Shown here in pieces: positions 128 to 14,351 of a DNA stretch of 14,805 nucleotides. The stretch's first letter is position 1, and every line of letters begins with the position of its first letter. A program made the position numbers and the translations under genes. The DNA is taken from contig JBHLMN010000038.1 of assembly GCA_048938105.1 (NCBI GenBank), positions 1-14,805 on the forward strand, written 5' to 3'. The notes under the pieces were generated by a model. It searched no databases. It was given only the letters and a program-made list of their open reading frames with translations, and was not told the origin of the DNA. The DNA is from Promethearchaeota archaeon. Its GTDB lineage: Archaea; Asgardarchaeota; Heimdallarchaeia; Hodarchaeales; Hodarchaeaceae.

Positions 128-148
128 TAAACCAACCTTTTACGATGT
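128..148 (+). repeat. Dispersed boundary motif, copy A
   Basis: TAAACCAACCTTTTACGATGT, 18/21 to core TAATCCAGCCTTTTACGACGT. Confidence 0.65.
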
Positions 149-271
149 ATTATCAAGAAGCAATTCTTTGTATAATTTGTGATTACAATAAAAATTCTTT
201 TGTTTTAAAAAGATGCATGTATTTGTTGTTATTTTTACTGTAAACACCACAATGGCAACAACAGGCTTGTT

Positions 272-379
272 ACAGCAACGATAACTACAATTTTGGCTTT
301 TAGCTCCTTCCCTGGGTTCTTCACCATCCTATTATTCTTTACTACTCTAGTAGTTATTCGTAGATATAAGAAGACATAA
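272..379 (+). pseudogene. Orphan C-terminal remnant of a surface protein (Thr-rich linker + PGF motif + TM helix + basic tail)
   Basis: Manual translation of 272-379 gives TATITTILAFSSFPGFFTILLFFTTLVVIRRYKKT*, a PGF-CTERM-like sorting signal. No credible upstream protein body is present. The start is approximate. Confidence 0.6.
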
Positions 380-510
380 TCGACATCAATTTAATGTTCT
401 TAGAACTTATCCAACGTTGTCTCGCTGATGACAATCACAATATCATTAAGAAAATAAGTTTGATCATTGCAGTTATAATTTAACGTTAATCGATGTTTAT
501 TCACCATTGT

Positions 511-1443
511 TTACATATCTCGAGCGATGGGAATAATTTCATCACGAAAGATTGATAGTGGCTCTTGTTCAGCTAATGGATTTCGCATGTTAAAGATTGC
601 GTGATCTATTCCCATTTCAGATAGAGTTTTGACCATTGATAGAATGTCATCAACACTTTTCAGATTTTTAGTTCCTCTCGCTGATTTCTCAGGAATATCT
701 GGTTGATCTAAGAAAACAGATCCTAAGGTAGTTTTTTCTATTTCATTATAGGGTCGTCCTTCAGTTTGACAATGCTGTTTAAGAGTCTCTAGTGCTTCTT
801 CAACTTTTTCTATTCCAGCTTCGAGGAAAAGGTTACAGGCATCAGCATATTTAGCAACGAATCTGAGGGTCTTTTTTGGCCCCATCCCACCAATCAAAAT
901 TGGTGGATATTTCTGATAAGGAGGGGGATTACAAAGTGTTTCTTTTAATTGATAGTGTTTCCCCTTAAATTCACCGTTATTCTCTGACCACATTTGTTTT
1001 GTGATTTGAAGAGTTTCCTCTAACATTTCAAATCTAGTTGTCCAATTATAGAAAGGAATACCTAATCCAACTGCTTCTCGTTCAAACCAACCTGCTCCAA
1101 TTCCAAAGTAAGCTCGTCCCTTTGATAATATGTCAAGTGTTGTTACAGCTTTTACTAACATCCCTGGATGTCGATAAATGTTTCCTGTTACCATTGTGCC
1201 TAATTTAACATTCTTAGTCACTGCTGCTGCATAGTTAAGTAATGAATATCCTTCATGCATGTCATCCTTAGCCGGGCCTAACAGATGATTTTCTAGACTA
1301 CCGATTTGAAAGAAATGGTCCATCACCCACAGGCTAGAAAAGCCCGATTCATCCACAGTTTGTACTATCTTTTTGAAATCATCAGGAAATGATTTTCTAC
1401 CTTTTGGAAATGTTAAATTTGGAATTTGAATACCTATTTTCAT
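511..1443 (-). CDS. LLM-class (luciferase-like) F420-dependent oxidoreductase, Rv1855c-like
   Basis: 310 aa with SLWVMDHF, LGTMVTGNIYRHPG, TLDILSKGR, GIGAGWFERE, PILIGGMG and AKYAD, all typical of the luciferase-like monooxygenase superfamily. Confidence 0.9.
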   Translation of the reverse strand: MKIGIQIPNLTFPKGRKSFPDDFKKIVQTVDESGFSSLWVMDHFFQIGSLENHLLGPAKDDMHEGYSLLNYAAAVTKNVKLGTMVTGNIYRHPGMLVKAVTTLDILSKGRAYFGIGAGWFEREAVGLGIPFYNWTTRFEMLEETLQITKQMWSENNGEFKGKHYQLKETLCNPPPYQKYPPILIGGMGPKKTLRFVAKYADACNLFLEAGIEKVEEALETLKQHCQTEGRPYNEIEKTTLGSVFLDQPDIPEKSARGTKNLKSVDDILSMVKTLSEMGIDHAIFNMRNPLAEQEPLSIFRDEIIPIARDM

Positions 1444-1461
1444 AAAACAAAAACAGATTTT

Positions 1462-13500: not shown

Positions 13501-13661
13501 AACCAAGATTGCTCCACAGAATCAACACTGACCTGAACGCCAAGAAGAAGGCTAACTCCAAGGGCAATACCCAAGATGGCATAAATATTTTTAGCTTTTC
13601 GGCGATAAACGGATTTTAAAGAGTAAAGAAGAGAAGCATAAGTAGATCTCATTTGGTTCAT
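10527..13661 (-). CDS. FtsX/MacB-like (type VII) ABC permease with two fused permease halves
   Basis: Two copies of the pattern N-terminal TM, large extracytoplasmic domain, FtsX motif (SVEDREVQTGISRAIGVQRRQV and SVSERKREIGMMRAIGFTR). Both halves end in PA.RA/PSWKAA...EALR-type signatures. Confidence 0.92.
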   Translation of the reverse strand: MNQMRSTYASLLYSLKSVYRRKAKNIYAILGIALGVSLLLGVQVSVDSVEQSWLDGSIYSLGKRHIQVFGTASPVVPENFYTTYLENTLETSSSHVQSVTARLSWKGTLLNDATGDIEVGVPFMGVNPSEQGFGEYYNASNLDQVLSLNQLQSNELYLGGDLADQLSVEVGDNLTISIGFGDQKSEGILTVRGIYGGKGRGEEDFATHAVFPLANLQALLPFGQSINVIYLAIDDEVDTKPESEALINDIRAKLNTLGDTIPPEFIPPGYQVSDLFAIIDVRQATKDSIGPTMDALEMIMNVFGALVIFAGLLLIINIQFMSVEDREVQTGISRAIGVQRRQVILQVIVEAGLLGVIAAFVAIPIGSVYAYFLIFVFAQTFGLPLEATRLIISPNVLSQSLILGISLALFTALLPAVRASRINIVEVIRGIIPPPKERFSRRGFYLGIFMLILGIIWFFMLDTAPWEGPSAFRNINDAEAIYFPFILIFVSVPLILSYFVVNKHLVMNLMALSLLVLPLFYIFVVFDWIEEGSGGTLVILGILFSLVIGSIVFIGLNLDFIADGAEAFTKYFKALAATAQVAFRNMASNKTRSTLTFAIFASVLTLNVFMATWSYSQRYGFNEQMYDLSGGIDIAVISQTPIPDNTGFDQVVSSLDSRIDHVSKLTIPSDPAQMFFQDELDYSSSDTTLPLTCFVVNQETFWSDNETQAFELQLMPSKNVLLDSVTSGDAKEADIDREDQMTWEAFFNGTKIQNSLGEEKPFLISSNYYLASPAGTDKTPVDESIWLQDKNGTLVEFVIGAITSFYSPIEQAYASVSISVISGPMFGSPSLYVPEEYAQDLAFYPIELVNATNMFLIKTSGLLDDQMNEDISKSIESTANSMTGSFRQAQGMYGVIGVPLWNVFEFQLESQYRMFNFMQVFTSLGFLVGIIGLLVVSVRSVSERKREIGMMRAIGFTRPNLIFTILTELVVMGLIGLVVGLINGSLLGWTLTDVNSGGTATFLIPWATIGLYTVITFGAALIAAIIPSWKAAQIPPSEALRYVG

Positions 13662-13820
13662 CTCACATTTGTGTCAAATTAGTAGCTTAATATTTTAATT
13701 TTTATTTTTTTAATATATTTACAGAGTACTCGTCTTTAATTGGGAGTACAAATAATGATAGAATAAAAAAGGAACATAACCTAGAATCTCCTACAATATA
13801 TTTTTTGAGTACCAGCCTTT

Positions 13821-14149
13821 GAAATAATCATTTTCAACAACGAATTTTTCAACTAACTTTCCATCCAGCGAGGTTAAAGGTTTTGGGACTAGAATACCAT
13901 AGTCGTGCAGAAAAACGATCCAATCTATATTTGCTTGGACAAGATCAGGACTCATATGATTAAAATGCGCTACTCTTAAAATATAGTTGAGGCCTTTTTT
14001 ATAAAAGAATATACTTGGTTCTCAAAACCTCTCAGAAAGATAGTGTTGATGAATCTATATCCCATTTTAAACAGAATTTATCAGTAAGTTCTTCACTTTG
14101 AGGTTCATACGATTGATCTAATTCAGTCTTCTTATAAGTTTAATTCCAT
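13821..14149 (-). pseudogene. Frameshifted, 3'-truncated aminoglycoside-phosphotransferase/homoserine kinase type II-like gene (N-lobe only)
   Basis: Not in the ORF track. Manual minus-strand translation across about 3 frameshifts gives ...KFCLKWDIDSSTLS/FLRGFENQVYSFIKK/GLNYILRVAHFNHMSPDLVQANIDWIVFLHDYGILVPKPLTSLDGKLVEKFVVENDYF. This is the typical APH-family N-lobe, and no HxDxxxxN catalytic lobe follows. Confidence 0.7.
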
Positions 14150-14325
14150 TATTTCTTCCTTTACCAATTGTTGTTAAGCTGTAATACCTTCTCTTTCTTT
14201 TTTTACAATTAAAATAATTGAGAGTTAATCTTCTGGTTAAAAAATTATGTTCAGTACTGGTGTAATGAGTAAAAAAGCGATTAATTAAATGCATCCTTCT
14301 TTTTCTTCAAAAAATGATAAGCAGA

Positions 14326-14351
14326 GGTGCTAATCCAGCCATAGACGACGT
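14326..14351 (+). repeat. Dispersed boundary motif, copy E
   Basis: GGTGC-TAATCCAGCCATAGACGACGT, 18/21 to core. Confidence 0.85.

Follow-up and report, generated by a model that had tools for sequence, protein, structure and literature searches.

Overview of the locus

The 14,805-nt contig JBHLMN010000038.1 of a Promethearchaeota archaeon from the Hodarchaeales (GenBank assembly GCA_048938105.1; 5.85 Mb, 35% G+C, 99% complete; genome G000 below), which we analyzed over its full length as our window and which forms the entire contig C5 of this assembly, carries co-oriented copies of a short intergenic motif that is probably the core site of a site-specific recombination system. The segments between the copies are unrelated gene units, as the original prediction had it, and their cargo agrees with what had been assigned to them (luciferase-like monooxygenase, LVIVD, YdjM, NosD/beta-helix, an ABC/FtsX operon and an ArsR-type helix-turn-helix (HTH) protein; Table 1). 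Five full copies were recovered at the positions originally reported, matching the 21-nt core (counted by eye) at 18/21 (position 128), 17/21 (1502), 20/21 (4507), 17/21 (5370) and 18/21 (14331), and another around 7734 indeed lacks four bases of the centre (TTAATCC----TTTTACGAAGT). Two partial copies had also been proposed, of which the one at 13812 stands (centre CCAGCC plus TTTGA) and the one at 4280 is supported by no scan. All copies lie on the + strand and outside open reading frames (ORFs) of at least 90 aa.

Table 1. Sites and modules of the window in order of position, followed by the inverted (class II) sites found elsewhere in the genome.
Feature	Position	Strand	Details
Site 1, class b	94..148	+	pair GTATTATATAC-AGTG-GTATTATAC 94-117, left arm TATAATCTAAA 121-131, centre CCAACC 132-137, right arm TTTTACGATGT 138-148; right-half score 22.7
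Luciferase-like monooxygenase module (gene 511-1443)	149..1494	-	Pfam PF00296
Site 2, worn	1495..1522	+	AATCTACTAAT-CCAGGC-TTTTGTAACGT; score 27
Unnamed protein (1538-2542, -), LVIVD-repeat protein (2859-3998, +), gene fragment (4114-4410)	1523..4499	mixed	
Site 3, best window copy	4500..4527	+	TTGGTATTAAT-CCAGCC-TTTGACGACGT; score 40.4
YdjM-family membrane protein module (gene 4719-5210)	4528..5362	-	blocks of 83-90% identity in five relatives, within 4709-5268
Site 4	5363..5390	+	AAGGTGTTAAT-CCAGCC-TTTTGCGTCAA; score 37.7
NosD/right-handed beta-helix protein module (gene 5643-7700)	5391..7726	+	
Site 5, defective	7727..7750	+	TTAGTGTTAAT-CC-TTTTACGAAGT; four centre bases missing
ABC ATPase, ABC ATPase, MacB/FtsX permease operon (7875-13661)	7751..13811	-	
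Site 6, partial	13812..13828	+	CCAGCC plus TTTGAAATAAT; left arm not recognisable
Non-coding/fragmentary stretch, no ORF of at least 80 aa	13829..14323	.	89% identical to G009 beside a site there
Site 7	14324..14351	+	GAGGTGCTAAT-CCAGCC-ATAGACGACGT; ATAG right-arm variant; score 29.2
Module start: 82-bp conserved leader (14350-14431), ArsR-type HTH gene (14533 onward)	14352..14805	+	continues into contig C63
Class II sites	G000:C63 18982, 21021, 24535, 27160, 42018; C37:107143; C43:8395		

Anatomy of the site

Judged by its sequence, the site spans 28 bases and appears to follow the layout of a tyrosine-recombinase core site, with an 11-nt arm, a 6-nt centre and a second 11-nt arm. Across the aligned copies, the left arm reads TTGGTGYTAAT (class a) or ..TCTAAA (class b, ..TATCTAAA), the centre CCAGCC is invariant, and the right arm reads TTTKRCGACRT. 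In relatives, the class b left arm is preceded by GTATATAC-N4-GTATATAC.

The right arm together with its mirror image makes up perfect 10-6-10 palindromes (TGTCGYMAAA-N6-TTTKRCGACA) that we found in 19/21 genomes of the genus and never in controls, with one to six of them per genome and many different centres. One such palindrome in the relative G017, ATGTCGTCAAA-CCAGCC-TTTGACGACAC, places the centre of the window's sites between two strong arms. Because its right arm is half of palindromes that are common in the genus, the motif is best described as a putative dif-like hybrid site that would not be unrelated to Xer-type sites. The earlier view that the motif lacks the 11-6-11 palindrome of dif is thus correct insofar as the site is not palindromic, but the arm-6-arm layout itself is present. 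Rare palindromes built from the left arm may leave room for a site bound by two proteins.

Besides these class I sites, the genome contains class II sites (ATGTCRTCAAA-CCAGCC-variable; Table 1) whose strand is the opposite of that of the class I sites around them; each lies 0.9 to 1.9 kb from one of the latter. The two class II sites of contig C63 at 21021 and 27160 have 60 nt of upstream flank in common and diverge after the centre; sites of this class may mark invertible segments.

Distribution in the genome and the genus

The motif is neither a chance sequence nor dispersed. With up to three mismatches, the 26-mer is expected 0.00 times in shuffled sequence, which excludes chance, and a position-weight scan of the genome gave 35 matches at a score of at least 20 compared with a single one in the reversed-sequence control. 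Of the stringent sites, 31/32 fall into 3.3% of the genome (ca. 194 kb of accessory DNA; P ~4e-45), 21 of the 24 genomic copies of AAGGCTGGATT lie within 208 kb, and the 38 class I sites are without exception intergenic, compared with an expected 22% (P ~2e-25). Nearly all matches are found in five places, i.e., contigs C5, C13 and C43, the last 60 kb of C39 and the first 73 kb of C63. Contig ends that overlap by 77 nt join C5 to C63, C13 to C43 and C39 to C1, so the array contigs are pieces of a few larger arrays.

Within these arrays, the sites run in long stretches of one orientation: 14/14 on the minus strand in C39, 6/6 on the minus strand in C43 and all on the plus strand in the window, while C63 begins with plus, continues with seven minus sites and ends with four plus sites (minus up to 43 kb, plus from 50.6 kb). 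The genes next to a site show no matching pattern, with 13 opposite/opposite, 13 same/same and seven each of the two mixed arrangements, and no fixed distance to the site. The whole-genome scan therefore bears out the original prediction in two respects: the motif is clustered and co-oriented, and its placement does not depend on the orientation of the flanking genes.

When one genome per GTDB species was scanned with a 22-nt motif, 12 of 13 matches came from metagenome-assembled genomes labelled Hodarchaeota, Heimdallarchaeota, Hermodarchaeota or uncultured archaeon (two of them from the same Hermodarchaeota genome), and the remaining match was in a bacterium, with about one chance match expected. 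An exact 13-mer is present in 14/17 sampled genomes of the genus as opposed to 1/12 outside it. Relatives have co-oriented arrays of their own, and a comparison of the array flanks with the relative G009 showed that the positions are not conserved and that the genomes are heavily rearranged.

Probable exchange of modules at the site

The modules measure 0.7 to 16 kb and contain one to six genes in either orientation between co-oriented sites; they probably have promoters of their own. Comparison with relatives revealed gain, loss and reshuffling of modules with breakpoints inside the motif, which is what the original prediction had anticipated. We assembled a junction set of 107 site copies from G000, its relatives and metagenome contigs, in which 11 pairs have flanking DNA in common right up to the site, 10 of them on one side only; the single two-sided pair probably represents one strain seen twice.

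The clearest case is a 2.6-kb module of the unnamed gene and the LVIVD gene that is ca. 92% identical in the relative G002 and in Hodarchaeota YT5_056, with sites on both sides and unrelated DNA beyond. Its left arms differ at the upstream joint, where identity sets in at TAATCCAGCC; at the downstream joint the right arms differ, and identity extends to the end of CCAGYCTTTT. A contig of G014 (C415) has 85 bp upstream plus the core in common with site 3 of the window and diverges after CCTTT, and homology within a pair of loci from G011 and G006 (L058/L061) begins at CCAGCC. Homology that ends after CCTTT and homology that starts at CCAGCC together bracket the crossover to CCAGCC(TTT), inside the invariant centre.

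Further breakpoints lie in or close to other sites of the window: homology of the monooxygenase module with G014 stops between TCTA and CTAATCC of site 2, a block in common with G009 starts at 13819 in site 6, and blocks in common with G011 and contig C39 start at 14350 and 14363, at the right edge of site 7 and just beyond it. Every window block that is at least 80% identical in relatives lies inside one inter-site interval; the few that touch a site either end in it or extend no further than the site with its near flanks. In run X3, an unrelated mangrove metagenome from another study, one contig connects position 13810 with 4533 and so brings the left flank of site 6 next to the right flank of site 3. 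This comparison with sample runs used assembled contigs; parts of the window left uncovered in runs X2, X3 and X6 are uninformative, and joints with a short side in run X1 (e.g., 2362 to 4503, side 20) are uninformative either way. Modules in common with G009 are 89 to 96% identical compared to 75 to 82% for core DNA.

The strong arm also occurs with a second centre, CGTTGG, which marks other arrays of G000 (e.g., at 188 to 217 kb of contig C56). A 2.2-kb module of this kind (C37:104143-106342) is 96% identical to G009, again as opposed to 75 to 82% for core DNA, and its homology extends exactly from the centre of ATGTCGTATAA-CGTTGG to the centre of ATCAGACAT-CGTTGG. By these joints, the CGTTGG family follows the same exchange logic as the CCAGCC family.

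The candidate recombinase

The window had been noted to contain no recombinase, and this extends to every array of the motif in G000: the genome has three tyrosine-recombinase genes, none of them in an array, and the ca. 600 kb of array DNA that was searched in G000 and other genomes yielded no tblastn match to these proteins. Neither in G000 nor in the relatives does a full motif lie within 1.5 kb of a tyrosine-recombinase gene. Protein families that recur in the arrays are cargo families only, with no candidate enzyme and no transposase among them. The original proposal of a recombination site that bounds mobile modules and is served by an enzyme encoded elsewhere is thus supported by the clustering, the breakpoints and the absent integrase. 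Two other leads to an enzyme were discarded. The polarity switch of C63 (43 to 50.6 kb) has only TIR/Thoeris-like, metallophosphatase, MatE and glycosyltransferase genes, and serine recombinases are represented just by fragments at contig ends that are IS-related (insertion sequence) by appearance.

The tyrosine recombinase encoded at C14:173949-174839 is a XerA equivalog (NF040815, 283 bits compared to a cut-off of 220) and the only one with a counterpart in nearly all genomes of the genus, with XerA-like matches in 19/20 relatives. One arm of the site (at most one mismatch) is found 0 to 30 nt upstream of the xerA start in 7/7 loci and species examined, where ca. 0.005 would be expected per locus by chance. 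It may be an autoregulatory operator, or xerA itself may sit at a module joint. This arm lies at L001:1426-1436 and in the xerA loci L092 to L097, in either orientation. A Xer-like paralogue at C56:201270-202136 is embedded in a CGTTGG array, one of whose sites lies 545 nt upstream of it, and has close relatives in only about five genomes. We infer that host XerA would be the leading candidate enzyme and the patchy paralogue the alternative.

A model of module exchange and its alternatives

Taken together, we consider the motif to be the core site for conservative, site-specific recombination by what is most likely an Xer-type tyrosine recombinase, a system that divides ca. 194 kb of the genome into exchangeable modules, and assign this reading a probability of roughly 0.7. 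Strand exchange would take place at the 6-nt centre CCAGCC, and two directly oriented sites would recombine to release the DNA between them as a circle that retains one site. In the reverse reaction, such a circle could be inserted at any site with the same centre, and repeated insertion would build up co-oriented arrays of unrelated modules. The left arm would move with the upstream DNA and the right arm with the downstream DNA, the enzyme would be supplied in trans, and the same arm combined with another centre (CGTTGG) would define a separate compatibility group.

A broader version of this model is more tentative, and we rate it as somewhat less probable than its converse: Hodarchaeales might run an integrase-free platform for gene capture that is driven by housekeeping XerA, with blocks between dif-like sites of the same centre being cut out, transferred to other species and inserted again, several compatibility groups, each defined by its centre, together extending over several per cent of the genome, and class II sites adding invertible segments.

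Several points weigh against exchange by a site-specific recombinase. Recombination is deduced from assembled contigs, and the circle would be a predicted intermediate. In many shared blocks the homology covers a single gene and ends with it, 50 to 200 bp before a site is reached, and not all reshuffling may need to be mediated by the site. Homologous recombination across the 14-nt identical core would give similar junctions. The site is not palindromic, with only 5 to 6 of 11 positions of the left arm matching the reverse-complemented right arm, and the class II sites are inverted relative to class I, with no full P-R site found in G000. The ATAG variant of the right arm is common to five to six copies with unrelated downstream flanks, which is a poor fit to simple linkage of the right arm with the downstream DNA. 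Finally, searches for a genuine chromosomal dif for comparison identified none. Candidates built from left-arm palindromes were noise, those at C63:53253 and C56:127255 lack conservation across the genus, and TGTCGCCAAACAAGACTTTGACGACA is syntenic in three species yet found in 8/21 genomes of the genus and absent from G000. This last 26-mer is 100% conserved at G009:C1:3452204-3452229, G002:C94:8223 and G013:C30:3876, and the flanks in G009 are ca. 60% identical to those of the others.

Of the other explanations, the most probable one, though we deem it unlikely, is that the sites are fossil scars, i.e., worn att remnants of old integrative elements whose integrases were lost, and that present reshuffling is homologous recombination between short repeats. 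The lack of a recombinase in or beside any array would be expected for such scars, as would the many degenerate copies (including half-sites and the centre deletion at 7738) and the limitation of much homology to single genes, and a 14-nt invariant core could support short-patch homologous exchange. Recent exchange is indicated, however, by modules that are 92 to 96% identical between species compared to ca. 77% for core DNA, and mere scars would not explain why the centre is invariant while the arms drift, why polarity is strict over 60 kb, why the genus has retained full palindromic sites in intact form, or why a recombinant joint appears in an unrelated sample.

Still less probable, in our assessment, are protein-binding sites with no role in recombination, such as operators for XerA or another regulator or polar sites for chromosome organization or fork arrest that mark accessory DNA. 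The single arm at the xerA promoter of all seven species is operator-like, and the one polarity switch of C63 is reminiscent of a fork trap, but the sites keep no fixed distance or orientation to genes and also occur between convergent ones, which likewise led us to reject a reading as promoters. They are confined to 3.3% of the genome and not arranged around origin or terminus, the arrays of G009 are at different chromosomal places, and binding alone leaves the one-sided homologies and the cassette-like sharing unexplained.

We give very little credence to the target or end of some other mobile element (the end of a transposon or miniature inverted-repeat transposable element (MITE), the target of a homing endonuclease or a duplicate of the 3' end of a tRNA or protein gene), given that the reverse complement does read ...R-K/Q-R-L-D-stop in 32/34 copies but no reading frame that ends in the motif is open for more than 40 codons, that the motif matches no tRNA or Rfam family and has no inverted partner or extra folding, and that the sites are direct repeats around unrelated cargo with no transposase recurring in the arrays. 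A coding tail is rejected on the same grounds, since the stop-codon pattern is the one predicted by independent base frequencies (two variable bases with no excess co-variation). Repetitive extragenic palindromes or MITEs were discarded in view of the missing dyad and the concentration of 31/32 copies in so small a part of the genome.

Relation to known systems

The motif had been set apart from integron attC sites, and we agree, having found no integron integrase and no attC hairpin. The best match to the IntI model TIGR02249 scores 90 + 81 bits in two pieces compared to a cut-off of 265, misses model positions 180 to 237 and is XerA itself. The best inverted match within 200 nt of the sites scores 6.9/6.5 compared to 7.6/7.7 at controls, with folding energies equal to those of controls.

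The likeness is greatest to the pdif modules of Acinetobacter plasmids and to integrative mobile elements exploiting Xer (IMEX) such as the CTX phage, which are integrase-free modules with 28-bp arm-6-arm sites of the Xer type (PMC5357621). As here, identical modules occur in different contexts, and the host Xer is the presumed mover. Unlike pdif modules, the arrays described here are archaeal and chromosomal, with ca. 45 sites over 194 kb that are mostly direct repeats with only a minority of inverted class II sites, whereas pdif sites are plasmid-borne and alternate in orientation. Here, moreover, one arm is strong and the other divergent, the asymmetric centres CCAGCC and CGTTGG are fixed, and a single XerA is found in place of XerC plus XerD.

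Integrons and clusters of attC sites lacking integron integrases (CALINs), including archaeal ones (Ghaly et al. 2022, PMC9668308), similarly have co-oriented sites between unrelated acquired genes, often lack an adjacent integrase and share cassettes across taxa. They differ by their IntI and attC hairpin, for which the present arrays have a double-stranded 28-bp core site, and by cassettes that are mostly single, promoterless, co-oriented ORFs, compared with often multi-gene modules of one to six genes in either orientation. Archaeal XerA/dif (Cortez et al. 2010, PMC2958812) shares the 11-6-11 layout and the XerA equivalog, and 8/11 positions of the class a left arm TTGGTGTTAAT agree with (A)TTGGATATAA(T), the dif arm of Pyrococcus abyssi. 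There, dif is a single near-perfect palindrome at the terminus, in contrast to dozens of asymmetric copies in accessory DNA. Tandem islands and tycheposons (bioRxiv 10.1101/2020.12.28.424599) arise by serial insertion at one attachment site and have direct repeats between unrelated cargo, but the repeat studied here is not a tRNA or gene end and the blocks have no integrase. The cassette system works like integrons and pdif modules and is a member of neither family. No paper describing these arrays turned up in our literature search.

Hodarchaeales are among the closest known archaeal relatives of eukaryotes, and the genomes of Asgard archaea are large and contain many bacterial-type genes. 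If our interpretation is true, a cassette system with no dedicated integrase would be a concrete mechanism of gene flow in the lineage nearest to eukaryotes, consistent with the recent exchange indicated by module identities, and Xer-driven module exchange, so far described from bacterial plasmids, would extend to archaeal chromosomes. The short, defined DNA sites and the candidate enzyme are at hand.

Cargo of individual modules

The modules of the window have different histories of sharing. For the monooxygenase module, blocks of 84 to 85% identity occur in G014, G001 and G016, all within 511-1500, and the two-gene module of unnamed and LVIVD protein is flanked by sites in G002 (L055), G017 (L057) and L109. 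The ABC operon is found whole in G004 as one 5.8-kb block of 87% identity (7857-13700 of the window). In G015 (C1:1124612-1127483), its FtsX-permease gene is present in two adjoining pieces on opposite strands (window 12417-13652 inverted beside 10884-12419), an arrangement that resembles an internal inversion breaking the gene.

The gene fragment next to the LVIVD gene (ORF 4114-4410) encodes GDAAFHANPFSAEG, a motif of geranylgeranyl-reductase-like enzymes that depend on flavin adenine dinucleotide. Its segment at 4087-4273 is 96% identical to a stretch of G011 (C73) and has many copies of 70 to 75% identity across the genus, resembling a dispersed piece of a pseudogene. Within the NosD gene, a 71-nt internal repeat (7188-7258 and 7458-7528, 72% identity) is consistent with repeated coils of the beta-helix.

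The 82-bp element at 14350-14431, directly to the right of site 7, recurs with no site at C39:254761-254851 (90% identity) and in contig C35 of G011 (84%); it may be a promoter, leader or small RNA upstream of the ArsR-type gene. Near the polarity switch of C63, two ThsB/TIR-domain genes (40045-41863; L069:45-1863) and a 1315-aa metallophosphatase-domain protein (43066-47013; L069:3066-7013) indicate that the arrays carry defence-type cargo. At the other end of the window, positions 1-77 are the terminal part of a multi-copy, IS-like repeat ending ...ACAGCTCACCAACCC, which recurs at or close to the ends of C11, C37, C41, C54 and C56. It lies ca. 45 nt from site 1 and is probably the cause of the assembly break.

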